Assembly (NCBI RefSeq): GCF_003334815.1
Contig: NZ_QOWO01000058.1
DNA from: Escherichia coli
Lineage (GTDB): Bacteria > Pseudomonadota > Gammaproteobacteria > Enterobacterales > Enterobacteriaceae
Length of the DNA: 13,117 nt
Direction: 5' to 3' (one strand)
Shown here: piece after piece, positions 1-13,117 of the stretch
How positions within the stretch are numbered: the stretch's first letter is position 1
Layout of the letters: each line of letters begins with the position of its first letter
The notes under the pieces: model-generated
The model's database searches: none
What the model was told of the DNA's origin: nothing
What the model saw: only the letters and a program-made list of their open reading frames with translations
Program-made: the position numbers and the translations under genes

Positions 1-39
1 TGCCTCTGCCGTCTGCATAAGACTATGATGCACAAAAAT

Positions 40-135
40 AACAGGCTATAATGGCCTGAAAAACGGGACAGGATGTGTAATTGTAATACCGTCACACGCG
101 ACGCTATTACAATTACCATCTGGTCAGGGCTTCGC
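40..135 (+). other. oriT: Candidate origin of transfer (oriT) upstream of nikA, with inverted repeats
   Basis: Perfect 12-bp inverted repeat GTAATTGTAATA (77-88) / TATTACAATTAC (105-116), extendable to about 17 bp with one indel (72-88 vs 105-120). Second short palindrome CAGGC-TATAATG-GCCTG (42-58) containing a TATAAT hexamer (47-52). Position immediately 5' of a nikA/nikB relaxosome operon matches the R64 oriT arrangement. Exact nic site not determinable by eye. Confidence 0.6.
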
Positions 136-160
136 CCCGACACCCCGTAAGGAGCCTGAA

Positions 161-493
161 GTGAGTGATAGTGCAGTAAGAAAGAAAAGTGAGGTACGGC
201 AAAAGACAGTTGTCAGAACACTCAGATTCTCTCCTGTTGAGGATGAAACCATCAGGAAAAAAGCTGAAGATTCCGGACTTACTGTATCTGCTTACATCCG
301 AAATGCAGCACTGAATAAGCGAATTAACTCCCGTACAGATGATGCTTTTCTGAAGGAGTTAATGAGACTGGGAAGGATGCAGAAGCATCTGTTTGTTCAG
401 GGAAAAAGAACCGGTGACAAGGAATACGCAGAAGTACTTGTTGCCATAACCGAACTTACAAATACATTGCGTAAACAGTTAATGGAAGGTTGA
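161..493 (+). CDS. nikA: Relaxosome accessory protein NikA (ribbon-helix-helix, oriT-binding), 110 aa
   Basis: GTG start at 161 preceded by SD TAAGGAG (148-154); stop TGA 491-493. 110-aa basic protein directly upstream of the relaxase gene; size and position match NikA of IncI1 R64. Confidence 0.88.
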   Translation: MSDSAVRKKSEVRQKTVVRTLRFSPVEDETIRKKAEDSGLTVSAYIRNAALNKRINSRTDDAFLKELMRLGRMQKHLFVQGKRTGDKEYAEVLVAITELTNTLRKQLMEG

Positions 494-503
494 GGATTCT
501 CCG

Positions 504-3203
504 GTGAATGCAGTCATTCCGAAAAAGAGAAGGGACGGCAAGTCTTCGTTCGAAGACCTGGTGTCCTACGTCTCTGTCCGGGATGACATGACCGATGAGG
601 AACTGAATTTATCTTCTTCTTCGCAGGCTGAACAACCGCACCGGAGCCGCTTCAGTCGTCTTGTTGATTATGCAACACGCCTTCGAAATGAATCATTCGT
701 GGCACTGGTTGATGTCATGAAGGACGGCTGCGAATGGGTTAACTTTTATGGTGTGACCTGTTTTCACAACTGTACATCTCTTGAAACTGCCGCTGCAGAT
801 ATGGAGTACATTGCACAGCAGGCACACTATGCGAAAGATAATACTGATCCTGTTTTTCACTACATTCTTTCCTGGCAGGCCCATGAAAGCCCGCGTCCGG
901 AACAGATTTATGACAGTGTACGCCATACCCTGAAATCTCTCGGGCTGGGTGAACATCAGTATGTCTCTGCCGTGCATACCGATACTGATAACCTGCATGT
1001 TCACGTTGCGGTCAACCGGGTGCATCCGGTTACAGGTTATCTCAATTGCCTTTCATGGAGTCAGGAAAAACTCAGCCGTGCCTGCCGTGAGCTTGAACTG
1101 AAGCATGGTTTTGCTCCGGATAACGGTTGCTGGGTCCATGCGCCGGGAAATCGTATCGTTCGCAAAACTGCCGTTGAACGTGATCGCCAGAACGCTTGGA
1201 CACGCGGAAAAAAACAAACTTTTCGCGAGTATGTTGCGCAGACAGCGGTAGCTGGTTTACGCAGTGAACCTGTACATGACTGGTTATCCCTGCATCGTCG
1301 TCTTGCTGAAGATGGTCTGTACCTGTCTCAGATGGACGGAAAATTTCTGGTGATGGATGGCTGGGATCGCAACAGGGAAGGTGTACAGCTTGACTCGTTT
1401 GGCCCTTCCTGGTGTGCAGAAAAACTCATGAAAAAAATGGGTGACTACACGCCAGTACCAAAAGACATTTTCAGCCAGGTGGAAGCACCAGGACGCTATA
1501 ATCCGGACTTCATTGCAGCTGATGTTCGCCCGGAAAAAATCGCTGAAACAGAAAGTCTGCAGCAGTATGCCTGTCGTCATCTTGGAGAACGTCTGCCGGA
1601 AATGGCACGGGAAGGACGGCTGGAAAACTGCCAGGCTATTCACCGCACACTGGCTGAAGCGGGATTATGGATGCGTGTTCAGCATGGTCACCTGGTTATC
1701 TGTGACGGTTATGATCATAACCAGACTCCCGTTCGTGCTGACAGCGTATGGTCACTGCTGACGCTCGACAATGTGAATCAACTCGATGGTGGCTGGCAGC
1801 CTGTACCAACAGATATTTTCCGCCAGGTTACGCCAACAGAACGCTTCCGTGGTCGTCGTATGGAGAGCTGTCCTGCGACCGATAAAGAATGGCACCGTAT
1901 GCGTACAGGTACGGGGCCGCAGGGGGCTATCAAACGCGAACTGTTTTCTGACAAAGAAAGTCTGTGGGGATACAGCATCAGCCATTGTAGCCCTCAGATT
2001 GAAGAAATGATCACACAGGGTGAGTTTACCTGGCAGCGTTGTCATGAGCTGTTTGCACAACAGGGACTGATGCTACAGAAACAACATCACGGGCTTGTTG
2101 TCGTTGATGCCTTTAATCATGAGCAAACGCCGGTGAAAGCCAGCAGCATTCATCCTGATCTGACACTGGGGCGTGCGGAGCCACAGGCCGGACCTTTTGT
2201 GAGTGCCCCAGCAGATTTGTTTGACAGGGTGCAACCTGAAAATCGCTATAACCCGGAGCTGGCTGTCAGTGACAGGTACGGGGTCAGCAGTAAACGTGAT
2301 CCAATGCTGCGCCGGCAGCGACGTGAAGCCAGGGCTGAGGCCCGTGCTGACCTGCGTGCCCGCTATCTGGCATGGCGTGAACAATGGCGTAAACCAGATC
2401 TGCGTTATGGGGAACGTTGTCGGGAAATTCATCAGGCATGCCGTCTGCGGAAGTCACACATTCGTGCGCAGTACGATGATCCGGCATTACGTAAGCTGCA
2501 TTATCACATTGCAGAAGTTCAGCGAATGCAGGCATTGATCAGGCTGAAAGAAGACATCAGGGATGAGCGACAGAAACTTATTGCTGACGGGAAGTGGTAT
2601 CCACCCTCTTACCGTCAGTGGGTCGAAATTCAGGCTGCTCAGGGAGACAGGGCTGCTGTATCGCAGCTGAGAGGCTGGGATTATCGCGATCGCCGTAAAG
2701 ACAAGTCACGCACAACGACGACAGACCGCTGTGTCGTGCTTTGTGAACCGGGCGGAACGCCGGTATACGGTAATACCGGTGATCTCGAGGCCCGTCTGCA
2801 GAAGAACGGGAGTGTTCGTTTCCGTGACCGTCGGACGGGAGAGTTGGTCTGTACGGATTATGGTGACAGGGTTGTTTTCCGTAATCACCATGACCGCAAT
2901 GCGCTGGCAGATAAACTAGATTTGATTGCACCTGTATTGTTTGAGCGTGATCCCAGAATGGGCTTTGAACCAGAAGGAAACGATGGACAGTTTAATCAGG
3001 TCTTTGCTGAAATGGTGGCATGGTACAATGTGACGGGATTCTCTGAACATGGAAATTACGTTATTACTCGACCGGACGTAGATCAGCACAGGGAAGTGAG
3101 TGAGCGGGGCTATCGCAATTACATGGATAGTAACACTTACAGAGATGGAGCTCAGCCAGTTCAGGATAGTGAGAATCGCTGGGAACCTCCAACACCGGTG
3201 TAA
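504..3203 (+). CDS. nikB: Conjugative relaxase NikB (MOB-P family), 899 aa
   Basis: GTG start at 504 with GAGGA (492-496) upstream; stop TAA 3201-3203. Contains the MOB-P histidine-triad motif HTDTDNLHVHVAVNRVHP (compare RP4 TraI HxDxxxxHxH) and an N-terminal Tyr-containing region (DLVSYVSV). The 899-aa length agrees with R64 NikB. Confidence 0.93.
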   Translation: MNAVIPKKRRDGKSSFEDLVSYVSVRDDMTDEELNLSSSSQAEQPHRSRFSRLVDYATRLRNESFVALVDVMKDGCEWVNFYGVTCFHNCTSLETAAADMEYIAQQAHYAKDNTDPVFHYILSWQAHESPRPEQIYDSVRHTLKSLGLGEHQYVSAVHTDTDNLHVHVAVNRVHPVTGYLNCLSWSQEKLSRACRELELKHGFAPDNGCWVHAPGNRIVRKTAVERDRQNAWTRGKKQTFREYVAQTAVAGLRSEPVHDWLSLHRRLAEDGLYLSQMDGKFLVMDGWDRNREGVQLDSFGPSWCAEKLMKKMGDYTPVPKDIFSQVEAPGRYNPDFIAADVRPEKIAETESLQQYACRHLGERLPEMAREGRLENCQAIHRTLAEAGLWMRVQHGHLVICDGYDHNQTPVRADSVWSLLTLDNVNQLDGGWQPVPTDIFRQVTPTERFRGRRMESCPATDKEWHRMRTGTGPQGAIKRELFSDKESLWGYSISHCSPQIEEMITQGEFTWQRCHELFAQQGLMLQKQHHGLVVVDAFNHEQTPVKASSIHPDLTLGRAEPQAGPFVSAPADLFDRVQPENRYNPELAVSDRYGVSSKRDPMLRRQRREARAEARADLRARYLAWREQWRKPDLRYGERCREIHQACRLRKSHIRAQYDDPALRKLHYHIAEVQRMQALIRLKEDIRDERQKLIADGKWYPPSYRQWVEIQAAQGDRAAVSQLRGWDYRDRRKDKSRTTTTDRCVVLCEPGGTPVYGNTGDLEARLQKNGSVRFRDRRTGELVCTDYGDRVVFRNHHDRNALADKLDLIAPVLFERDPRMGFEPEGNDGQFNQVFAEMVAWYNVTGFSEHGNYVITRPDVDQHREVSERGYRNYMDSNTYRDGAQPVQDSENRWEPPTPV

Positions 3204-3228
3204 AGAATGTTATAAACGGGAGATTATT

Positions 3229-3801
3229 ATGGCTTATGTCGATGATTTTAAAGAAGCAATAATCAGGACTCGGCGGTTACAACTTGCGCAACCCGTTGAT
3301 TTATGTGAGATGCATACTCGCATAATGAACGATAAACGAATCCGCCATTTGGGAGGAATTATACGTCCTGTACTGGATCTGAATTCTGGGTATGAACAAC
3401 TGGTTGCGCGATGTATGCCTGTTCATCTTCAAGCCAGACCTTTGGTTGAAGAATGGCTGGGATGTCCTGTTTATTTTACGTTGGGATGGATTGATGATGG
3501 GACCCCAAAAGGTATGTTCAGGTTTGATGAGGACTTTATTACTGATACATTGAAAAATGGTTATACAGGAGATACTGTCAATCTTCATGCATGGCTAACT
3601 TTACCTAGTATGGAAATTATAGATATCACATTATCAACAACAATTTCTATGTTGCAGGGGCATAAGAATCAGTTAGGCGGTGTTATTATCAAGAGAGCTG
3701 ATGATATTAAAGGCTTCTCATATAAGCCAATGCTTATTGGTGATGAATTCCTGTTAAAATCTGGTATATTGCATAAGTTTACATATCTAGAATTGAACTA
3801 G
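3229..3801 (+). CDS. Hypothetical protein, 190 aa, hydrophilic, no recognised domain
   Basis: ATG at 3229 with GGGAG (3218-3222) 6-7 nt upstream; the longer ORF-track start at 3100 overlaps the nikB 3' end and has no RBS. Stop TAG 3799-3801. AT-rich codon usage like the adjacent microcin island. Convergent with mcpB. Confidence 0.6.
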   Translation: MAYVDDFKEAIIRTRRLQLAQPVDLCEMHTRIMNDKRIRHLGGIIRPVLDLNSGYEQLVARCMPVHLQARPLVEEWLGCPVYFTLGWIDDGTPKGMFRFDEDFITDTLKNGYTGDTVNLHAWLTLPSMEIIDITLSTTISMLQGHKNQLGGVIIKRADDIKGFSYKPMLIGDEFLLKSGILHKFTYLELN

Positions 3802-3850
3802 TGTTTTTTAAATAAACTGGTTTTTTGACGTTCTTATCTCTGTTCAGAAA

Positions 3851-6040
3851 TCACCTCCTGTTGGGATGATTATTTATATTATGAGTTCTGACAGGTCGAT
3901 ATTTTATTTCCGAAAAGTGACCATCTCTCAGATACAGAACTCTGTCTGCGGATGCTATTGTTTCTGGTCGATGAGCTATTAACAGAACAGGAATTCCGAG
4001 TTGGCGTAATGTCTGGCTTATTTCTATTTCACTTTCCACATCAAGATGACTGGTTGCTTCGTCCAGTAATAATAGACTAGGTTTTTTATACAGTGCTCTT
4101 GCCAGTAGAATACGTTGCTTCTGACCACCGGAAAGTCCCCCCCCGGTTTCTCCAAGCAATGTTTGATAGCCCATTGGCATTGCCATAATATCACTGTCTA
4201 TAAGTGCCAGACTTGCGCATTTACGCATGTGTTCATGATCTCTAATTTCGCTAAAAAACATTATATTATCAGCTATAGAACCTTTGAAAAGATAGTCATC
4301 TTGCAATACAGTGCCAATTCGTTGACGAACCTGAAAATAATCAGAATGTGTATGTGGTATGCCAAATGCATTAATTCTTCCTTCACTGGGTGTATGAATC
4401 CCAAGAATAAGCTTTACCAATGTTGATTTGCCACATCCTGATTTACCTGTTATTGCTAATATTTCTCCAGGAAAGAGCATTAGTGACGCGTTATCCAATA
4501 TGGGTTTATCTGCGCCCTTATGGCTAAATGTTATTTTTTCGATAAGTAATGGTGGATGGGTATTATCATATTTATGTTCTCTGTACTGGCTTGCAGATAT
4601 TGTTTCATTATGGTTTGCCCAATGGTGCTGATTCTGGTGACCTTCCTGTGGTGTTAGCACAATATCGGCAAGTCTCTCGTTATAAACATCAAGCATGCGC
4701 CAGGAAAAAAAGTTATCAGTCAGATTGCTTATACTGGATGAAAAACGCATCTGATAGGATAAGTAAGCAACCAACATACCCACGGTAAATGTCCCATCCA
4801 GCACTTCTACTGCACCCTGCCACAAAATAATGGCTGAAACTACACTTTCCGTCAGTGTATGCGTCAGCTCATAGCTCATTTGTAAACGATTCTGGCGTAG
4901 CTGTGTGTTTCTGCGGGTAACGTTGAGGTTCAGCCAGGCCGCTTCTCTGTGAATAGTTACACCGTTGATTCTCAGACTCTGAATGCCGTTAAGGGTTTCG
5001 AGAAAATGCCCCGACTCCTTAGTTCCTGCATCCCAGACATCTTCAACAGATTGCCGTAAAGCCGGATACCACAATGCTCTCAGTGCGCCATATATAATAG
5101 CTGCAATTACTGCGATTAATGTCATTCCTGGACTATACAACAGCATCATGCAAAGAGCAGTCACAATAAGTAGCATATCCAGAATGCCTTCAAGAACCTG
5201 CGTTGTCAGCGCCTGCTGGATTATATCTACTGCTTCAAAACGGGCATTAATACTTCCTTTACTTCGGGCATCGAACCATGCAAGAGGGAGTCTTACAAGA
5301 TGATGGAAAACTCTGGCAGTCCATTGCATGTTAAAATTGACTGATAAACTGATCGTTGCCCATTGTCGTGCCAGGGAGAGTAATAATTGTATGAGTGATA
5401 ACAACAGTAGTGCCACTATAATGACATACAACAGACTTCTGTCTGCTGCAACCAGAACTTCATCAATTACCAGTTGATTAAGAAGTGGACCACCTAAAGC
5501 CAGAATCTCAAGGGCCAGAGCAAAAATAATAATTTTTGTCATTGATGCTAAAAGCCCCGGGGTTTTCCCTGTCAGTTGGCGCAGGTGGATTTTTTTTCTC
5601 TCGTTCCGGGGGGTGAAATCACTGGCTGGAGTTAATTCCAGTGCCACTCCTGTAAAATGCTTACCTGCGTCCAACAGACTTATTGTAATTTTTCCTCTGT
5701 CCGGATCATGGATGTATAACCGGTTTCCCCGAACTTTATGGAGAACGACGAAATGGTTCATATCCCAGTGCAGAATAGATGGAAGATTAAGACACCTCAG
5801 ATCTTCGGGTTCCAGACGAACTGCACGTGATGATAAATGGATGGACGCTGCACATTCGATCAACCTTTGTAGCGTCATTCCCTGAATACCTATATTGAAA
5901 CGTTCCCGTAATGTCGATAAATCTGTTTTCAGTCCATGCCAGCAGGCAATCATAGCCAGACACGCCAGACCGCATTCAGCTGATTCGGTTTGACGGATAA
6001 CGGGTAGTTGTTTCCTTACTTTCCAGTTTATTGATTCCAT
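3851..6040 (-). CDS. mcpB: Microcin ABC exporter with N-terminal C39 double-glycine peptidase domain (CvaB-like)
   Basis: C39 peptidase motifs (QTESAECGLACLAM catalytic Cys, HFVVLH His), a transmembrane domain, Walker A GKSGCGKST, ABC signature LSGGQKQR, Walker B LLLLDEATS, H-loop IAHR. Start chosen at the ATG 6040-6038, which overlaps the upstream gene stop as TAATG and has a GGA-containing SD (AAAGGAAA). The ORF-track start at 6088 adds 16 aa and lacks an SD. N-terminus aligns with CvaB (PVIxQTExAECGLACLAM). Confidence 0.92.
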   Translation of the reverse strand: MESINWKVRKQLPVIRQTESAECGLACLAMIACWHGLKTDLSTLRERFNIGIQGMTLQRLIECAASIHLSSRAVRLEPEDLRCLNLPSILHWDMNHFVVLHKVRGNRLYIHDPDRGKITISLLDAGKHFTGVALELTPASDFTPRNERKKIHLRQLTGKTPGLLASMTKIIIFALALEILALGGPLLNQLVIDEVLVAADRSLLYVIIVALLLLSLIQLLLSLARQWATISLSVNFNMQWTARVFHHLVRLPLAWFDARSKGSINARFEAVDIIQQALTTQVLEGILDMLLIVTALCMMLLYSPGMTLIAVIAAIIYGALRALWYPALRQSVEDVWDAGTKESGHFLETLNGIQSLRINGVTIHREAAWLNLNVTRRNTQLRQNRLQMSYELTHTLTESVVSAIILWQGAVEVLDGTFTVGMLVAYLSYQMRFSSSISNLTDNFFSWRMLDVYNERLADIVLTPQEGHQNQHHWANHNETISASQYREHKYDNTHPPLLIEKITFSHKGADKPILDNASLMLFPGEILAITGKSGCGKSTLVKLILGIHTPSEGRINAFGIPHTHSDYFQVRQRIGTVLQDDYLFKGSIADNIMFFSEIRDHEHMRKCASLALIDSDIMAMPMGYQTLLGETGGGLSGGQKQRILLARALYKKPSLLLLDEATSHLDVESEIEISQTLRQLGIPVLLIAHRPETIASADRVLYLRDGHFSEIKYRPVRTHNINNHPNRR

Positions 6041-7293
6041 TACAGATTTCCTTTCATGCTCCATAGTGGCTCTGTCAGCCATTCCCATAAATGACGAGTA
6101 TCAAGGTTGACGTCTCCTTCCAGAGTCATGCCTGGTCTTAGCGGTTCTTTTTTTCCGTATGCAAATATAAATGTATTTTCAGGCTCAACAATAACGCGAT
6201 AATGCCCTTCGTTTTCTTTCCATGTGACGGGTGAAACTGGTAATAAGTCGGAAGGAGCCAGAGTCGTATGACTGATTTCACGAATTGTGCCGTACTGGAT
6301 ACCAAATTTCTGATAAGGGAAGGCCGAAAACTTCAGAGATACTCGTTGACCTGGTCGGATAAAACCGGCTTTCTGGCTGGTAGCATAAAGCTCAATTTGT
6401 AAATGAGCATTATCGGGAATGAGAGTCATGACCGGTTCTGATGCTTTCACAGACTGCCCCTGTTTGATCAGTACAGCAGCAATAGTCCCGGATACTGGAG
6501 CCCTCAGTGTAAATTTTTCTTGTCCGGCCAGTTCATCCTGTTGTTGTTTTAGCACCTGCAATTGTCTGTCGAGTTCTGCTTTACGGCTTTTCCCCTGAAC
6601 AATAAGATGATTTAGTTCATCTTTGGCTGTGTCCATTGCAGTATGCAACTGGAGAAGCCCCTGACGCTGATCTTCAACGTTTTGTTGAGCGGCAGAAACA
6701 TCAATTTGTTTCTGTTGGAATTCGATATCTGACACATAATGCGTACCAGCCAATTTTTTATAGCGTTCCATGACGGATATAGCCAGTTCTGCCTGACGTT
6801 CAGCAAGCTGAAGTCTTTGTTCTGCACTTCTTATTTGTGGCTCAAGTGATACCATCCTTTGCCGTATGGCTTCCTGTTGTTGACTATTATCTCGCGACTC
6901 AAAGGATTGCTGGGAGGCCAGCATGATAGACTGGGTTTTCAGGGAAATACTCATCGTTGCTAATGTGCCAGTTCCGTTACCGTTATAATGTTCTCCACTT
7001 ATATGATAGAGTTGTGTCCCTGCAGTTACGTGTTCTCCTTCGGATACAGTCAGTTGTGTTACATATCCTGCATATTGAGGAATTATTTTTACCAGTCCTG
7101 ATGAGGGCATGACGATACCTGTAAGATGCGCTTTCCTTGTATAGCTACCGTAATAGATGAATACAGTCAGACTTAACATAATGAATAATGTAACTGTTGC
7201 ACATACGGATAGGCTAAATGATGTTGGTAAAATAATGTCACCATATTCAGTGTCATTATGATGTTCTATTGCTTCACTTCTGAATATATTCAT
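6040..7293 (-). CDS. mcpD: HlyD/CvaA-family membrane fusion protein for microcin export
   Basis: N-terminus MNIFRSEAIEHH aligns with CvaA MFRQDALENRK, followed by a single TM helix and a long coiled-coil Q/E-rich periplasmic region. Start taken as ATG 7293-7291; the ORF-track start at 7329 is a TTG with no SD. Stop TAA 6042-6040 overlaps the mcpB start. Confidence 0.88.
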   Translation of the reverse strand: MNIFRSEAIEHHNDTEYGDIILPTSFSLSVCATVTLFIMLSLTVFIYYGSYTRKAHLTGIVMPSSGLVKIIPQYAGYVTQLTVSEGEHVTAGTQLYHISGEHYNGNGTGTLATMSISLKTQSIMLASQQSFESRDNSQQQEAIRQRMVSLEPQIRSAEQRLQLAERQAELAISVMERYKKLAGTHYVSDIEFQQKQIDVSAAQQNVEDQRQGLLQLHTAMDTAKDELNHLIVQGKSRKAELDRQLQVLKQQQDELAGQEKFTLRAPVSGTIAAVLIKQGQSVKASEPVMTLIPDNAHLQIELYATSQKAGFIRPGQRVSLKFSAFPYQKFGIQYGTIREISHTTLAPSDLLPVSPVTWKENEGHYRVIVEPENTFIFAYGKKEPLRPGMTLEGDVNLDTRHLWEWLTEPLWSMKGNL

Positions 7294-7395
7294 TCTTTTT
7301 AATACAATAACTAACCTTTCTGTCAACAAGAGGGGTTGGTTGAATAATATTGATATTTGATATACATCTTACCTGTGTGATGTTAAAGTTTTATA

Positions 7396-8031
7396 CTATA
7401 ATATATTTAACAATATAACAAAGCCGTTTATCCCCGCATGTAACAGCATTGGATAGAAAATCCCCTTACTGCAAATTCTTATATTCAACAATAACATTGA
7501 CATAATAAACAGAATAATTTGATCAGCTACATTATAATACTGCGGATGCATCAGGCAGAAAAATAAAGATGTACACACGCAGGGGGTGAATAATTCTTTT
7601 TTATAAGTCGCACATAGAAGGCCGAATAAACATGTTCGGTAAACAATTTCTTCATAATACGGAACTATCAGGACCAGTATAAATATTTCAATCCAATTAA
7701 GTGAAGTTGATTCACTATTGTTTAAATTGTCTCTATAAGCAAAAATAAGCAGTTGCATGAGAGCAATTACAGCAAATGATATTACTAATAGCTTTAATGT
7801 TTTCGCATTTGTCTTTATGGTGATTTTACAACCTGGTATTCTTCTTAAGTAAAAAATATAAAATGAAGTTGATATTAAAATTTCAGTAATAAAGACAAAG
7901 GAAAATGCCAGGTCCAAACCAATATATTGTATGGTGAATGCTGGTGTGAATATCACAACTGTTGATATAACAACAAGTAGAAGAAACGCTATCGCATTAT
8001 CTTTGCTGTATTTATATATGTTATCATTCAT
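7396..8031 (-). CDS. mcpA: CPBP-family (CAAX protease / Abi-like) intramembrane metalloprotease homologue, 211 aa
   Basis: Polytopic membrane protein with the three CPBP motifs: EExxxR (EEIVYR), FxxxH (FFCLMH) and HxxxN (HAGIN). Very AT-rich. ATG at 8031-8029 lies 4 nt after the mcpI stop (TAG 8038-8036). Confidence 0.85.
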   Translation of the reverse strand: MNDNIYKYSKDNAIAFLLLVVISTVVIFTPAFTIQYIGLDLAFSFVFITEILISTSFYIFYLRRIPGCKITIKTNAKTLKLLVISFAVIALMQLLIFAYRDNLNNSESTSLNWIEIFILVLIVPYYEEIVYRTCLFGLLCATYKKELFTPCVCTSLFFCLMHPQYYNVADQIILFIMSMLLLNIRICSKGIFYPMLLHAGINGFVILLNIL

Positions 8032-8035
8032 AATG

Positions 8036-8236
8036 CTATTTCGCGGAGATTGTTCTTATTTTTTCTATGATATAGTCCATGAATCTTGCTGTGGAAAAAA
8101 GAGTGATCAGCATGACTACAATCTTTGAAAACTCGGAAGGGAGTGAAAACCAGTATAAATCAATAACAGAGGAGCCACTCAATAGCGCAAATCCCAGTAA
8201 CAAACCACATATAAAGGAAAGTAATTTAATAAACAT
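8036..8236 (-). CDS. mcpI: Small two-helix membrane protein, probable microcin immunity protein (66 aa)
   Basis: Small hydrophobic ORF immediately downstream of the precursor gene, the usual position of class II microcin immunity genes. Start chosen at ATG 8236-8234 (MFIKLL...) because GGAGG lies 8-9 nt upstream; the ORF-track start at 8251 would add 5 aa (MEGAT). Confidence 0.7.
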   Translation of the reverse strand: MFIKLLSFICGLLLGFALLSGSSVIDLYWFSLPSEFSKIVVMLITLFSTARFMDYIIEKIRTISAK

Positions 8237-8260
8237 AGTAGCGCCCTCCATTATATCTAT

Positions 8261-8623
8261 TTATCGGTTACATGTTCCGCCAACATTATTACCTGAACAA
8301 CTACTGGAACTTCCTCTGTTACCACATCCATTTCCACTACCATGATCTGAGAGACATTGACCAACAACGGCTCCACCAATGGTACCTCTTGCCATTCCTA
8401 TGGGACCTCCTTTGATCGCACCACCAATCATTCCACTAAATACAGCGTTAGCGCATTTTACAGTGCTTGGATCACTATAAATATGAGTTGGTGCGTTTCG
8501 ACCCAGTGAGTTACGAGCCCCACTGGAACGCTCATTACGGGGGCCACCTTCAAAGTTGCTGTTTGCGTTTCCTCCGCTGACAAGCGTTATCTCATCTAAA
8601 GTTAATTCTCTTATACCTGCCAT
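8261..8623 (-). CDS. mcpM: Class II microcin precursor with double-glycine leader (120 aa), matches microcin PDI McpM from memory
   Basis: N-terminal leader MAGIRELTLDEITLVSGG has the ExLxxxExxxVSGG double-glycine pattern ending at G17-G18, with a second GA site at G35/A36. Gly-rich mature region with GxxxG-like repeats (GGAIKGGPIGMARGTIGGAVVG) and Cys at 57, 90, 100, 109, 118. SD GGGGAAA upstream of ATG 8623-8621. First gene of an operon ending in a C39-ABC exporter. Confidence 0.88.
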   Translation of the reverse strand: MAGIRELTLDEITLVSGGNANSNFEGGPRNERSSGARNSLGRNAPTHIYSDPSTVKCANAVFSGMIGGAIKGGPIGMARGTIGGAVVGQCLSDHGSGNGCGNRGSSSSCSGNNVGGTCNR

Positions 8624-8780
8624 ATCATATTTCCCCTATTGGTTGTTTGTTATTTTGTGCGTTCAAGATAGCCAATAACAAAAATGTAATGAAAGTGAAA
8701 TTGTGTGATTAAATGTAAATATGTGAAAATATTTGTATGTTCTTGAGGTTGTGTGATTACAAAAATATCATCGTGTGAAG
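8624..8780 (-). promoter_or_regulatory. AT-rich promoter/operator region of the microcin operon
   Basis: About 160 bp AT-rich leader between the trbC terminator and the mcpM start. Read on the - strand it contains five TTYAC-type half-sites phased at about 10 bp (TTTCAC, TTTACA, aaTCAC, TTTCAC, aTTACA; + coordinates about 8685-8728). On the + strand TTGTGTGATTA occurs twice (8701-8711, 8749-8759). Exact -35/-10 not assigned. Confidence 0.5.
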
Positions 8781-8808
8781 ATATAAAACCGTGCCAGGGC
8801 TGGCACGG
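8781..8808 (-). terminator. Rho-independent terminator downstream of trbC
   Basis: Perfect 9-bp stem CCGTGCCAG (8789-8797) / CTGGCACGG (8800-8808) with a 2-nt loop; on the - strand it is followed by TTTTATAT (8788-8781). Lies 8 nt after the trbC stop codon (8816-8818). Confidence 0.7.
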
Positions 8809-8815
8809 CCTCTGT

Positions 8816-11107
8816 TCAGTACATTCCGTCCCAGTCCGGACGGTTGGTTTTTTTATGATGAAACCCGTTTACAGGACGCCCTGTCAGGTGGTTATTGTCC
8901 TGTGGAAGCGTTAACAGGTTTATACCTGCTCTTTCTGCTCTCACTGATATCTGATTTTCCTCTTTTGTTTCAGGTAGTTCTGGTCTGTTCAGCGTGATAT
9001 AGCGAATTCGTCGCTCTTCCCGTGTGGTCGTTTTAAGCGTATTCACCGCTGTTTCCCACAAGGCACTTTCACGTGCGTTGATATCCGTGTCGTACTCTTC
9101 CAGCATTGCCATAGCCGCCTGACGTCCTGCAATGCGTTGCTGGAATGTATCCACGATCGTGTGCGGCTCTGTGCGAATTTTTCGTCTTTTTCTGGAGGGT
9201 TTTGCAGTCAGGACGCCAATGATGGCACTGACATTTTCCGGTGACGGTATTCGACGTTGAGTAGTACGGGGAACAAGACGGCGGAGACGGTCCAGGCGTG
9301 GCGCATCCACGCTGATATACCTGTTTATAACAACGGGATCGCTGCTGCAGCTTTTCTCATTGTCAGGGATGAAGAATGATGCTGATGGTACGGTTTCTCC
9401 CCGGAAAATAGAAAAGAACTCGCCAGGATGAAGTTCAATCAACTCCTGAACATCTATCTTACTTTCCATCAGGATGCTGATTTGTGGGCTGTCAATCCAT
9501 GATTCACCAAATATGCCGTCCTGACGCTGCAGGTTGTTCATCCTCGCCCTGGCTTCTTCACCGGCGGCGCTTTTCAGCGTTCTGGCCGTACTGCCCTCGC
9601 TGACAATCCTGCCGGCAAATTTTGTCCCCGTGTTCTGCATCAGTGTTGCAGTATTCGTGGCTGTTGTCTGTCCTTCTATACGTTCCTGGTCCTGTGCCAT
9701 CAAAATCAGAGCAAAATCCAGTGAACGCACCTGAGTGGCTTCCACAGCAATACGGTCTGTATAGTATGCCCCCACTTCATCAAGGAAACACAGATAAGGG
9801 AAACGCCCCTTATATTTTTTGACTTCCAGTGCATCGGAATCAGTTCCTTCGAGGCGGTAGCCCAAATCACGGGCGAGAATCATACTTTTCTGGGTGATAA
9901 ACATTCGTCCCAGAGCAGACGTTGTATGCGCTGATGTATCCAGAGCGGGGATCATTACCATCAGAATCCTGTCGCTGTGAATGCTGTCACGGATATCGAT
10001 ATCACCGGAATCTTCAGCAAAAATATCCCCGAATGCTTCCGTGAATGTGCTGAAAGTTTCAGAAAACTGCCCGGAGAGATAAGCATGTTGTTTTCTGGGT
10101 TCTTCCGTCCAGGCTGATGGTGTCCTGACCAGCGACAGGTCGAAACCGGGAACGTCCTGAAGGTAGTTACGTAACGGTGCGATAGCTTCTTCCGGCCACT
10201 GATCATCGAGGCCACGACAGTAAAGTTTGGCCATCCCTTCGAGAGTCATATGTTCACGGAGCATCTGCAGCGACATTGTTTTGCCTTCGCGCACACACCA
10301 GAATTTAGTACCAAATACCAGTGCCTTGTTCATGGCAATGGCCCGGGACTGCCACTCGCCCCCCTGGACGTTCTGGGGCAACATTGACTGCATTGTCTCC
10401 GCTGTGAATGCCTCAGTGCTGTAACAGAAGGGATTCCAGGTATTTGACTGAGGTCGTGTTTTTTCACCACTCAGAATGATTTCACTGCGGGATTTTCCTC
10501 CGTTCATGAAGTTGATGACTTCCACATCGTCTTCACGGCCAAAGCGTCTGGCCAGATACCAGATCGTTCTTGCCGTATCATTCTGTGCCTTGCCATCGAC
10601 AAGGGTGAATCCTCTTGCCCAGCAAAGCGGGTTAATCGCCCAGGCAAAGATGGTTTCCGTTTTACCACCACCGGTGGTGGCGAAAAACATTATATGGCGG
10701 GTCAGATCGTCCATACTCAGCCACAACTCCCGACCTATATCCCTGACGCGTTGATAACCAACATAAAATATGCCGCTGGCCGGTGACTCCAGGATGACCT
10801 CATACTGAAACAGAGTTGGCCAGAAGCTGAAAAGGCTTCTTTTAATCATTCTGTCCTGTGACGGGTCAGCACATTCCAGCGTCATGGGCATACGAAGAGG
10901 GCAGCGCCATCGCTGCAGACTAAATACCAGCATCGTTATCAGTGTGAACAACAGACATGCCGGTAATGCAAGTGGCCAGATAAAACTGGCCACAAGACTT
11001 GCCACCAGGCAAAAGCCATAGATATTGAGACTCTGGAGTGCATTCCAGACAGGATTTCCCCAGGCTGTACGGTGTAAAAGCTCGGGGTTAACGCGATGTT
11101 CACTCAT
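8816..11107 (-). CDS. trbC: Type IVB coupling-protein-like ATPase TrbC (DotL/IcmO homologue), 763 aa
   Basis: N-terminal TM helices followed by an ATPase domain with P-loop FFATTGGGKTE. ATG 11107-11105 overlaps the trbB 3' end by 8 nt. Position after trbB and size agree with R64 TrbC. Confidence 0.88.
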   Translation of the reverse strand: MSEHRVNPELLHRTAWGNPVWNALQSLNIYGFCLVASLVASFIWPLALPACLLFTLITMLVFSLQRWRCPLRMPMTLECADPSQDRMIKRSLFSFWPTLFQYEVILESPASGIFYVGYQRVRDIGRELWLSMDDLTRHIMFFATTGGGKTETIFAWAINPLCWARGFTLVDGKAQNDTARTIWYLARRFGREDDVEVINFMNGGKSRSEIILSGEKTRPQSNTWNPFCYSTEAFTAETMQSMLPQNVQGGEWQSRAIAMNKALVFGTKFWCVREGKTMSLQMLREHMTLEGMAKLYCRGLDDQWPEEAIAPLRNYLQDVPGFDLSLVRTPSAWTEEPRKQHAYLSGQFSETFSTFTEAFGDIFAEDSGDIDIRDSIHSDRILMVMIPALDTSAHTTSALGRMFITQKSMILARDLGYRLEGTDSDALEVKKYKGRFPYLCFLDEVGAYYTDRIAVEATQVRSLDFALILMAQDQERIEGQTTATNTATLMQNTGTKFAGRIVSEGSTARTLKSAAGEEARARMNNLQRQDGIFGESWIDSPQISILMESKIDVQELIELHPGEFFSIFRGETVPSASFFIPDNEKSCSSDPVVINRYISVDAPRLDRLRRLVPRTTQRRIPSPENVSAIIGVLTAKPSRKRRKIRTEPHTIVDTFQQRIAGRQAAMAMLEEYDTDINARESALWETAVNTLKTTTREERRIRYITLNRPELPETKEENQISVRAERAGINLLTLPQDNNHLTGRPVNGFHHKKTNRPDWDGMY

Positions 11108-12170
11108 GGCCAGACTCGCTGTCGGTGGTTTTCAGGAATAAATTAAGCGTGCCAGTTTCCTGCAGAATTCCAGTAGGCAGATGCCAGCCCGTGTCGGACA
11201 GCACCCATGGGGTACCGGCAAATCCGAACTTACGGAAGGCGACATTGTTAACATCAATCGCAGCTCTGGCTGCTTTCAGGCATGTTTCATCTGCAGGCGT
11301 TGTTTCTTCTGATGGCGTCATCATTCCGTTATCTGCGGAATACAGTCGGTGCCAGCCGGCAGCACGTTTCTGAGCATCTTTTTCACACAGCAGTGGTGCC
11401 ACACGGTCGGTGGATTCCTCTCCACCAATAACTGAAACCGGGTAGATAACGACATTGAAGTCGCTGGCCAGGCGTTTTAAGGCCGGCTCCAGAAGTCTGC
11501 AGTTAGGACAGGCAGGATCGAGAAATGCGAACAGGGTTCGTTCATGACCGGATGACAGGTTGATGGTAAACATGCCCCGATCGGCGTTCCGCTTCAGAAC
11601 AGTAGCCAGATTATGTCGCGCAGCTGCGGCTTCCGGATTTTTGCTTGTGATTGTTTTCTCCGGTACCTGGACGTCTTTTTTCGGGGGAACCGGGAGTTGA
11701 ATGCCTTCATTTAATGGCACAGTGTGATTCAGGTGAGGGGGAAGCAGTCGTGGCTCACCTGCTGTCTGTACTGCTTCAGGCGTTGTATCATCCCAGAATA
11801 CACGATCAACATAGCGGAACAGAGAGAAGCCAATCGTTGCCATTACGAACAGCACAACGCTGGCGATTATGCCACGGAACAAAGGTGTTCTGCTGAAGCG
11901 GCGTTCCATCAGATATTCAAGGCGCAGGCAGGAATCAATAGCTGTAAGTATCTGGTCAGCGTTATGCTCCTGTTTATCAATCAGGAGGGTTTCTTTGTTA
12001 CGGGTGCCCATGGCGTCAAAGGCTATATGAATCAGTTGATTATTTCGTGTTACCAGCCCTGACAGGGCATCCCGTGGAAGGACGGCAATAATTTCTGTCC
12101 TGCCATCCGGCCAGATTGCCTGCACGGAAATATGTTTTGCAATACGTGTTGCAAAGTACTCGATTGTCAT
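11100..12170 (-). CDS. trbB: Thioredoxin-fold protein TrbB (CxxC = CPNC) with N-terminal domain and single TM helix, 356 aa
   Basis: ATG 12170-12168 with SD GGAGAA 8 nt upstream; central hydrophobic helix (LFRGIIASVVLFVMATIGFSLF); C-terminal domain with CPNC active-site motif typical of DsbC/thioredoxin-like conjugation proteins. Confidence 0.82.
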   Translation of the reverse strand: MTIEYFATRIAKHISVQAIWPDGRTEIIAVLPRDALSGLVTRNNQLIHIAFDAMGTRNKETLLIDKQEHNADQILTAIDSCLRLEYLMERRFSRTPLFRGIIASVVLFVMATIGFSLFRYVDRVFWDDTTPEAVQTAGEPRLLPPHLNHTVPLNEGIQLPVPPKKDVQVPEKTITSKNPEAAAARHNLATVLKRNADRGMFTINLSSGHERTLFAFLDPACPNCRLLEPALKRLASDFNVVIYPVSVIGGEESTDRVAPLLCEKDAQKRAAGWHRLYSADNGMMTPSEETTPADETCLKAARAAIDVNNVAFRKFGFAGTPWVLSDTGWHLPTGILQETGTLNLFLKTTDSESGHE

Positions 12171-12188
12171 TTTCAGTTCTCCGGATAA

Positions 12189-12875
12189 TCAGAATTCGTT
12201 GTCTGTAGCAGGTGTGCGGGGCAGGATGTCGTCGGTGAGGGACCAGTTGGTCAGGATGCGGCGTTTCCGGTCGCGATCTGGTTGTGGTTCATCCCAGATA
12301 AGACCGAGACTGAGCATATCCCGCCGTAAGCCTTCCACCGCTTCATCAACACAGGGTTCAGGGCAGGGAAGGCCAAAACGCATGGCTTCGGCCTCTGCAC
12401 GTGCAACGGCCACCACGCCAGCGCCTTCAATAAATCCTTTCGTGGTATTGGCGCGGTGTAATGCATAAAACAGCGTCCTGTCCACGCCTTTCAGCCAAAT
12501 CCAGTTGGGGGGCGTAAGCCGCAGGTCATGTGCATACAGCCAGACCAGCCCACTGCGGACGTAGCGATGTTGTTTCAGCCATTGCTGTGCTCCGTTGCTT
12601 TTAATCACTCTCTGGAAAGCTGATTTGGCCAGTGAATAAACAGGGGTACAGAATTTCCCACTGTCCCGTTTGCTTTTAATTCTGCATGAGAGGTTCAGTG
12701 TATCCATGAGCTTTAATGCTGCCTTACGATCATCCAGGAAATACTGAAGACCAAATATGGCAAAGAGCGCTTTTTCATGTGGTGCCATGTCTTTCCAGGA
12801 CGTTAAAGGTTTACCTAACTGGGCCATGAAACATCGTCTTGCAGCTGCAACATCGAGCTGCATATTGGTGATGAG
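12189..12875 (-). pseudogene. trbA: 3' portion of trbA (DotM/IcmP-like T4BSS component), probably truncated by IS insertion
   Basis: The 259-codon ORF 12189-12968 reads through the IS left terminus; its first 31 codons (12876-12968) are IS sequence. The remaining 228 codons encode a hydrophilic domain with no TM helices, consistent with the C-terminal cytoplasmic part of a DotM-like protein. Gene order trbA-trbB-trbC matches R64. Confidence 0.55.
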
Positions 12876-13117
12876 TGAACCGCCCCGGGAATCCTGGAGA
12901 CTAAACTTCCTGAGAAAGAGGTAAACAGGATGACTAAAAATACTCGTTTTTCCCCCGAAGTCCGTCAACGGGCAGTCCGTATGGTTCTGGAAAGTCAGAG
13001 CGAATATGACTCACAATGGGCGACAATTTGTTCCATTGCTCCAAAGATTGGCTGTACGCCGGAGACTCTGCGTGTCTGGGTTCGCCAGCATGAGCGGGAT
13101 ACCGGGGGCGGTGATGG
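12876..13117 (+). mobile_element. IS3-family insertion sequence (IS629/IS1203-like), left end; continues beyond window
   Basis: Terminus begins 5'-TGAACCGCCCCGGGAATCCTGGAG (12876-) with the TG start typical of IS3-family inverted repeats, followed 54 bp later by the orfA start. OrfA N-terminus MTKNTRFSPEVRQRAVRMVLESQ...TLRVWVRQHERDTGGGDG matches the IS629/IS1203 OrfA helix-turn-helix protein from memory. Confidence 0.85.
12930..13117 (+). CDS. IS3-family transposase OrfA (partial, 5' end only)
   Basis: ATG at 12930 preceded by AGAGG (12917-12921); open to the end of the window (62 codons). HTH-type N-terminal domain; the Gly-rich GGGDG stretch precedes the expected frameshift region. Confidence 0.85.
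   Translation, partial: MTKNTRFSPEVRQRAVRMVLESQSEYDSQWATICSIAPKIGCTPETLRVWVRQHERDTGGGD

Follow-up and report, generated by a model that had tools for sequence, protein, structure and literature searches.

The closest described relative of the locus considered here is microcin PDI (MccPDI), which kills enterohaemorrhagic and antibiotic-resistant E. coli and rides on a type of self-transmissible plasmid by which resistance genes are spread as well. In E. coli-25 the system lies on Plm (JQ901381/NC_019097), a plasmid cited to Eberhart 2012 and assigned to IncI1 (PMC3870983). While the precursor, McpM, is exported through McpB/McpD/TolC, the McpB peptidase domain cuts it at G17G18, and it is cut a second time at G35A36; McpA is required for active microcin, and McpI protects the producer (PMC5311971). 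In published work, mcpM-mcpI-mcpA is driven by OmpR when osmolarity is low, and MccPDI kills neighbouring E. coli via OmpF; the killing, the OmpF dependence and the OmpR regulation have been established for E. coli-25 only. Microcin S of pSYM1 is a published relative, PDI and S being 80% identical (PMC9746304). The colicin V (microcin V) cluster cvaA-cvaB-cvaC-cvi shares the class IIa layout of a double-glycine leader, a C39-ABC exporter and HlyD protein with TolC, and a small immunity protein (PMC5311971). Unlike colicin V, MccPDI has a second cleavage site, the CPBP protein McpA, OmpR control and OmpF as its target.

We analysed a 13,117-nucleotide stretch of an E. coli contig (NZ_QOWO01000058.1), hereafter the window, in which AT-rich DNA separates nikB from trbC. 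This DNA is real, accessory and already known: by its sequence, what the island carries is microcin PDI as already published (mcpM-I-A plus mcpD-B), together with one older, uncharacterised gene, orf191. In Plm these five genes have an identical order, orientation and place, between nikB-orf191 and trbC, and the plasmid is 98.1% identical to the window over 12.9 kb, with allelic differences only. Plm and the window fall in separate clades; in that of the window, some 30 plasmids are 99-100% identical to one another. The original prediction gave the same gene set and coordinates as the ORFs that we found and named mcpA, and it was right that the region is accessory; it was wrong to treat it as generic cargo, as the locus corresponds throughout to the MccPDI cluster published for Plm. 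Three comparative papers on IncI1 plasmids make no mention of the locus, and exact limits for the module help in reading such comparisons.

All five mcp genes lie on the minus strand. The mcpM ORF (8261-8623) begins MAGIRELTLDEITLVSGG and encodes a 120-residue microcin PDI precursor with the double-glycine leader G17G18; its translation has the published G17G18, G35A36, C57 and C90, plus E11, V15 and N19 (PMC5311971). The ORF of mcpI (8036-8251) encodes the 71-residue immunity protein, in the position and with the role given in PMC5311971, and mcpA (7396-8031) a CPBP/CAAX-type intramembrane protease, matching CPBP families, that is needed for microcin synthesis (PMC5311971). The exporter consists of mcpD (6040-7293), an HlyD-family membrane-fusion protein, and mcpB (3851-6040), a C39 peptidase-domain ABC protein for microcin cleavage and export (roles from PMC5311971). 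McpB has full-length matches to bacteriocin/type I secretion ABC families (TIGR03796, 1e-136; TIGR01193, 1e-89) and McpD matches TIGR01843 (1e-38), all below the NCBIfam equivalog cut-offs and so informative at the family level only. The features of a class IIa microcin system are thus present: a leader peptide, a C39 exporter with its HlyD partner and an adjacent immunity gene, together with mcpA. Because the McpM residues match those published and each of the five Mcp proteins shares 97.5-100% identity with its Plm counterpart (McpB 99.6%, McpD 99.3%, McpA 98.6%, McpI 100%, McpM 97.5%), we assign the module to MccPDI. By analogy with E. coli-25, the window copy would be expected to act as the published microcin does.

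The published OmpR sites lie at -81 to -102 (essential), -61 to -81 and -102 to -134 from the mcpM start (PMC5311971). Converted to window coordinates, they define a promoter region at 8684-8757 on the minus strand, in which the essential site B1 (8704-8725) contains TTTACATTT on the mcpM strand; the OmpR-site sequence is present, and the sites are predicted for this copy. The microcin module thus extends from about 3822 to at least 8757.

A sister cluster on the IncF plasmid pSA53IncF (CP076280; L014) has the same order of ABC exporter, HlyD protein, CAAX/CPBP protein, small immunity ORF and double-glycine precursor. Nucleotide identity is about 70% from mcpB to 95 bp upstream of mcpM, and the mcpM promoter block is conserved up to 8718. 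The precursor is 71% identical over 91 residues and the McpA and McpI counterparts are just 33-37% identical. We term this cluster PDI/S-like, the link to microcin S being drawn through the published PDI-S relation.

The compositional break that had been proposed for the region is confirmed. GC content is 0.398 for 3204-8815 against 0.504 (1-3034) and 0.506 (8802-12875), with the lowest values, as had been noticed, in mcpA (0.305) and the intergenic stretches (0.27-0.34). GC3 is 0.26-0.42 in the island genes and 0.47-0.52 in nikB, trbC, trbB and trbA; third-position GC differs between backbone and mcp genes with a chi-square of 83.9 (p = 5e-20), and island codon choice is moved toward AGA, ATA, TTA and CTA. 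The trbC terminator is also a real structure, a strong stem at 8789-8808 on the minus strand (dG -22.2 kcal/mol, z = -3.85) with its U-tract on the trbC strand. R64 has another allele of this hairpin at the equivalent position, and the sequence there in R64, P9 and L005 is GGCCGCGCC..GGCGCGGCC.

In R64 and ColIb-P9 the nikAB and trbABC genes on either side are 97-99% identical to the window (for R64, 97.0% over 1-3034 and 98.9% over 8802-12875), and nikA-nikB is likewise convergent with trbC-trbB-trbA. Between them stands a 36-bp spacer with a GC-rich terminator hairpin, with no orf191, no microcin genes and a different nikB tail, so that the island genes are not ancestral IncI1 backbone. The divergence from R64 ends sharply at 8801, 14 bp from the stop codon of trbC (8816-11107, minus strand), which is 99-100% identical to typical IncI1 plasmids up to that codon. 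Ordinary homologous recombination would not produce so sharp an edge unless the crossover fell within trbC without leaving a trace. The left border is another matter. The original prediction placed it at the stop codon of nikB, the IncI1 relaxase gene (504-3203, plus strand, as annotated in identical records). Compared with R64-type backbones, identity already decays inside nikB: it stays at 99-100% as far as about 2900 and, over the last 300 bp of the gene, drops through successive values of 86, 76, 73, 65 and 58% toward the stop, the onset lying at about 2930-3034 and BLAST homology to the R64 backbone stopping at 3034. This orf191-linked tail, which is diverged beyond about 2930 and clearly so over 3035-3203, encodes a protein end that aligns without gaps and differs at about half of its last 55 residues.

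The gene next to nikB, orf191 (3229-3801, plus strand), encodes an uncharacterised protein of 190 residues with no match in NCBIfam, PADLOC, PHROGs or the PDB sequence set. Residues C62, H120 and D132 are invariant in 40 homologues; in the structural model C62 opens helix 62-77, H120 opens strand 120-124 and D132 closes strand 129-132, and the fold is predicted to be papain/transglutaminase-like with a putative Cys-His-Asp triad. On distant Yersinia and Citrobacter contigs, orf191 homologues follow nikA-like and relaxase genes, and on the Citrobacter contig the homologue is followed by convergent genes resembling trbC, trbB and trbA. The gene looks to be transcribed with nikAB and is probably the third gene of that operon. 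We considered placing it in the microcin module and rejected this, since elsewhere it lies beside relaxase genes and the sister cluster lacks it. A role as a T6SS immunity-type protein, hinted at by the database label 'DUF1851' and by a Pseudomonas syringae homologue near Hcp and DUF2778 genes, found no support in Pfam scans of the protein and its 40 homologues. It is an unstudied, widely distributed protein family tied to relaxase genes.

The region is very probably not the single island between the nikB stop and the hairpin that had been proposed, but two layers of accessory DNA: an orf191 layer, and then the microcin PDI module between orf191 and trbC. The orf191 layer is accompanied by the diverged nikB 3' tail and the variant trbC terminator. 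Compared with R64-type IncI1, block 3035-8801 is most likely a one-piece import from a diverged relative in the I-complex, with the left crossover presumably inside nikB. The grounds for this proposal are the gradient in nikB and the lack of any true orf191-only ancestor, its polarity being unrooted; no plasmid diverged throughout nikB turned up as a donor. The synteny of orf191 with relaxase genes in distant MPF_I plasmids, and its apparent co-transcription with nikAB, would also suit the opposite polarity, in which the orf191-bearing junction is ancestral, the 36-bp R64-type spacer arose by deletion and the microcin genes are the sole true cargo. We consider this unlikely. Close copies of orf191 occur in just 58 of more than 1,600 IncI-type plasmids, nearly always with mcp, and the exceptions are deletion derivatives. 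Moreover, nikB of the R64 type is not truncated, its tail being a diverged allele of full length with a terminator of its own, and the GC content of orf191 (0.38) is well under that of the backbone.

These exceptions are three plasmids (L002, L004 and L013) that carry orf191 alone. All three have an identical junction, in which 11 bp (GAGCCGCTTAC) replace the 4,884-bp segment 3822-8705, and all retain 8706-8782, which holds OmpR sites B1 and B3. Over the 618-bp orf191 region they differ from the window at 2-4 positions, against 8 for the other mcp-positive clade. Because the mcp promoter was kept, we attribute the three plasmids to one deletion event. L004 (LR883001) had been a candidate for a virgin empty site, which we rejected since the retained DNA comprises published OmpR sites and has homology to the sister cluster (to 8718); the supposed empty site is, as its sequence reads, a deletion scar. 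The 11-bp filler is found nowhere in the window, and although it resembles the outer end of a Tn3-family repeat, the similarity spans too few positions to be of use.

We surveyed the junction with a nikB-3'/trbC-3' probe, which matched 1,620 plasmids. The identical 36-bp spacer with its terminator hairpin is present in R64, in ColIb-P9 and in 1,327 of the 1,620 matches. The island occurs in 69 plasmid records and in 45 of 5,426 complete E. coli genomes, and in none of the latter is it on the chromosome. In 55 plasmids the same spacer is occupied by an unrelated 1,014-bp DUF2971 gene (33% GC), and the junction is therefore polymorphic. (The DUF2971 product is similar to the PADLOC candidate PDC-S31.) In all, the nikB-trbC junction has at least four states. 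To this extent its description as a cargo-insertion site stands; a dedicated mechanism is not in evidence. Such a mechanism would have a single island inserted at the nikB stop, into a site with targeting of its own, for example by the terminator hairpin. It would fit the finding that three AT-rich occupants (DUF2971, orf191, and orf191 with mcp) replace the same hairpin spacer with right edges 9-14 bp from the trbC stop, and that the Citrobacter relative has a different small gene, ART-PolyVal-like, after its relaxase gene. However, no border motif is common to the occupants, and neither repeats nor a recombinase are present; on its left side the orf191 variant shows a gradient of divergence in nikB and not a point at the stop; and orf191 keeps its place beside relaxase genes in distant plasmids and so does not count as cargo in the way that the other occupants do. 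Moreover, a junction of convergent operons tolerates insertions harmlessly, which alone predicts polymorphism. A dedicated site is thus improbable, and a permissive convergent-terminator junction accounts for the data equally well. We give as little credence to a broader version, in which the MPF_I post-relaxase spacer is a targeted landing pad swapping small AT-rich competition or defence genes (DUF2971, orf191, ART-PolyVal-like, microcin) and orf191 is co-transcribed with nikAB as a conjugation-linked effector.

Consistent with the original prediction, which saw no flanking direct repeats and no integrase, we found no direct or inverted repeats in a search of all three breakpoint pairs (3034/8802, 3821/8706 and 3782/8782). 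The sole near-border match is an imperfect 16-nt repeat at 8696/8744, within the mcpM promoter. There is no integrase or transposase within the island, where every ORF is accounted for. The microcin module is a passenger of a conjugative plasmid, without mobility functions of its own in the window, and it reaches other replicons along with stretches of flanking DNA. One route, probably recombination within nikB and within trbC, led to the IncK2/Z plasmid L009, which has window 2207-8946 at 98.6% and its own trbC and trbB at about 75%. The other is probably capture beside a Tn3-family transposon: a 5,001-bp segment (3782-8782) is present on IncF plasmids of mouse E. coli, including the final 20 bp of orf191 and promoter DNA as far as 8782, and lies 23 bp from the end of such a transposon.

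How the microcin genes first came to lie in the orf191-trbC spacer cannot be recovered from the window sequence, and we infer the mode; the best lead is a decayed Tn3-family transposon, the module having come as its cargo and tnpR, tnpA and both terminal repeats having been lost later. The sister cluster, with 81-82% exporter protein identity and equal gene order, lies inside an intact Tn3-family transposon with tnpR, tnpA and perfect 38-bp inverted repeats, the IncF copy of the module lies close to a Tn3-family end as noted above, and about 30 bp between the L014 ABC gene stop and the repeat resemble window 3822-3850. Against this, window 3782-3819 matches the L014 repeat at about 9 of 38 positions (ungapped, by eye), which is chance level, and six Tn3-family terminal repeats, those of L003 and L014 among them, gave nothing above chance when the window was scanned for them, the best match (25/38) being inside nikB. 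Moreover, there is no target-site duplication and no tnpR/res remnant upstream of the promoter, and the L014 transposon may equally have acquired the cluster secondarily. Entry as transposon cargo is thus possible but doubtful.

The useful points are the extent of the module, the survival of its promoter in deletion derivatives and its movement with pieces of the flanks; the remainder is incremental and leaves the current understanding of microcins and IncI plasmids unchanged. Outside the junction, the source of the window, unlike Plm, has an IS3-family insertion in trbA. Window identity to all other plasmids breaks at 12875, and 12876-13117 (plus strand) is the left end of an IS1203/IS629-like element that interrupts the gene. 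The element end is TGAACCGCCCCGGG, and it has a 95% match beside an IS1203-family transposase in L002. In the ECOR 3 plasmid, which is otherwise identical to the window, trbA is intact.

The minus strand of the AT-rich island at 3204-8815, between nikB and the convergent trbC, encodes at 3851-8623 a recognizable set of products. ORF calls and family scans gave a 120-aa peptide with a double-glycine leader, a 71-aa ORF, a CPBP-type intramembrane protease, a HlyD-family adaptor and an ABC exporter with a peptidase domain. The 120-aa protein carries G17G18, G35A36, C57 and C90, as well as E11, V15 and N19, all of them residues investigated in McpM, the precursor of microcin PDI (MccPDI; PMC5311971). 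The layout of plasmid Plm (NC_019097) is identical, its five Mcp proteins are 97.5-100% identical to those of the window, and Plm (JQ901381, citing Eberhart et al. 2012) has been counted among IncI1 plasmids (PMC3870983). The window thus contains the MccPDI locus as published, in the plasmid setting already described for it; judged by sequence, the island is this known locus, 98-100% identical in dozens of sequenced plasmids. In none of the close records inspected did PGAP annotate mcpI or mcpM, and the Plm record instead has a 267-bp plus-strand ORF over part of that stretch. Thus, automated annotation conceals the microcin encoded by these plasmids.

The original prediction held that the island is inserted cargo rather than ancestral backbone. 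A junction probe, in which the final 500 bp of nikB and of trbC were joined, matched 1,620 plasmids, and its halves abut in 1,327 of them. R64, ColIb-P9 and one representative plasmid share a 36-bp spacer, AAAAAAGGCCGCGCCAGAATCCGGCGCGGCCACTGT, at this point. The island is present in only 69 plasmid records (at least 80% of it in 58) and in 45 of 5,426 complete E. coli genomes, every time on a plasmid. Since most of the plasmids matched have the spacer rather than these genes, and the island is rare, the DNA is accessory. Composition agrees with the predicted AT-richness: the sliding-window GC profile is 0.50-0.55 in nikB (to ~2900) and trbC/trbB/trbA versus 0.30-0.46 at ~3200-8800. By gene, GC is 0.516 for nikB (504-3034), 0.500 for trbC, 0.509 for trbB and 0.518 for trbA, versus 0.384 for orf191, 0.424 for both mcpB and mcpD, 0.366 for mcpI and 0.457 for mcpM; as expected, the lowest values are those of mcpA (0.305) and the intergenic stretches (0.27-0.34). 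Backbone and mcp genes also differ strongly in third-position GC (chi-square 83.9, p = 5e-20), and the island is enriched in rare codons, AGA, ATA, TTA and CTA among them. The proposed trbC terminator is borne out by folding, with a hairpin of -22.2 kcal/mol (z = -3.85) adjoining the trbC stop and, on the trbC strand, a U-tract after it.

Homology to R64 and typical IncI1 plasmids stops at 3034 and resumes at 8802. The right edge is sharp, trbC keeping 99-100% identity as far as its own stop. The left boundary is not the nikB stop codon, as had been supposed; divergence from the R64 type begins inside nikB as a gradient, from 99-100% identity up to ~2900 to 86, 76, 73, 65 and 58% toward the stop, and the protein encoded by the diverged tail aligns to the typical form free of gaps. 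Nor is the island a single unit. The plus-strand gene orf191 (3229-3801) constitutes a layer separate from the microcin module. In the window a gap of 25 bp, with a GGGAG ribosome-binding site and no terminator, separates it from nikB. It matches no Pfam, NCBIfam, PADLOC or PHROG profile, and 106 homologues are spread across Proteobacteria. Homologues of 58-60% identity on Yersinia kristensenii and Citrobacter braakii contigs lie directly 3' of nikA-like and relaxase genes, with convergent trbC/trbB/trbA-like genes following on the Citrobacter contig. On a C. braakii contig from a distant MPF_I plasmid, the relaxase gene and the orf191 homologue have a 174-aa ART-PolyVal-like gene (6405-6929) between them, one more small accessory gene at the end of a relaxase operon.

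Three plasmids (L002, L004 and L013) carry only orf191 between nikB and trbC, window 3822-8705 being replaced by an identical 11 bp, GAGCCGCTTAC. This apparent empty site is best read, from sequence comparison, as a deletion scar. The one junction is common to all three records, and the alignment of the sister cluster (below) with the window runs to 8718, across the 8705/8706 breakpoint. Over 618 bp of the orf191 region, the three differ from the window at 2-4 positions and a second mcp-positive clade at 8; among IncI1 plasmids, the analysis found no genuine orf191-only ancestor. In the mcpM promoter, the essential OmpR site has been placed at -81 to -102, with further sites out to -134 (PMC5311971), which convert to 8704-8725 and a limit of 8757. 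As 8706-8782 is retained, the orf191-only plasmids lack the microcin genes but still have their promoter. The promoter also contains an imperfect 16-nt direct repeat, TGAAATTGTGTGATTA (8696-8711) and TGAGGTTGTGTGATTA (8744-8759), which overlaps OmpR site B1 and ends 2 bp past the far edge of the -134 region; its first copy straddles the breakpoint.

The nikB-trbC junction therefore has at least four states: the tight 36-bp spacer (1,327 plasmid records), orf191 with mcp (about 58), a DUF2971 gene (55) and the orf191-only scar (3). The DUF2971 insert, 1,014 bp at 33% GC, puts one unrelated gene in place of the spacer in IncI1 plasmids such as pEC009.2 (12712-13725) and pSCU-483-1; its 272-aa product has weak similarity to PDC-S31, a candidate defence family of PADLOC (1e-11), and matches phrog_1762 (7e-27). 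The junction is thus polymorphic. A targeting mechanism is not supported: no motif recurs at the borders of the different occupants, and a recombinase is absent. The absence of flanking repeats was likewise upheld, with no meaningful direct or inverted ones at the island borders. An insertion-tolerant gap between two convergent operons would by itself produce the observed polymorphism.

The module has also moved between plasmids. An IncK2/Z plasmid matches window 2207-8946 at 98.6% identity, and its own trbC and trbB are only ~75% identical; the microcin block reached it along with flanking IncI1 DNA and is adjoined by an IS66-family element. In IncF plasmids of mouse E. coli, window 3782-8782, which takes in the final 20 bp of orf191, occurs as a 5,001-bp piece that begins 23 bp from a Tn3-family transposon end, between 645-bp inverted duplications. 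CP010214 has two Tn3-family terminal repeats in facing orientation ~290 bp apart (5689-5977), just 3' of a frameshifted tnpA; this pair, beside the captured module, resembles either a miniature element made up of repeats only or the end of a nested transposon. The sister cluster of pSA53IncF (CP076280) has the gene order of the window at ~70% nucleotide identity. At 5144-13869, perfect 38-bp Tn3-family inverted repeats enclose this PDI/S-like cluster (ABC, HlyD, CAAX, immunity ORF and 121-aa precursor) along with tnpR and tnpA. The cluster is thus transposon cargo, and the whole is a Tn3-family transposon, about 8.7 kb long, that carries a microcin. This cluster and the IncF copy make a Tn3-family vehicle, later decayed, the best lead for how the module may first have entered; a terminal-repeat scan of the window found no Tn3-family ends.

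The original observation was thus correct, but its interpretation calls for revision on three points: the left boundary, the single-island assumption and the implied targeting mechanism. The deletion-scar reading, the four-state junction, the Tn3-borne sister cluster and the relaxase-linked orf191 family are small new points.

Over the final 242 bp of the window (12876-13117), trbA is interrupted by the left end of an IS3-family element (IS1203/IS629-like) that begins TGAACCGCCCCGGG. As trbA is one of the transfer genes, the source plasmid may be transfer-defective. All other close relatives have an uninterrupted trbA, among them the ECOR 3 plasmid, which is otherwise 100% identical.
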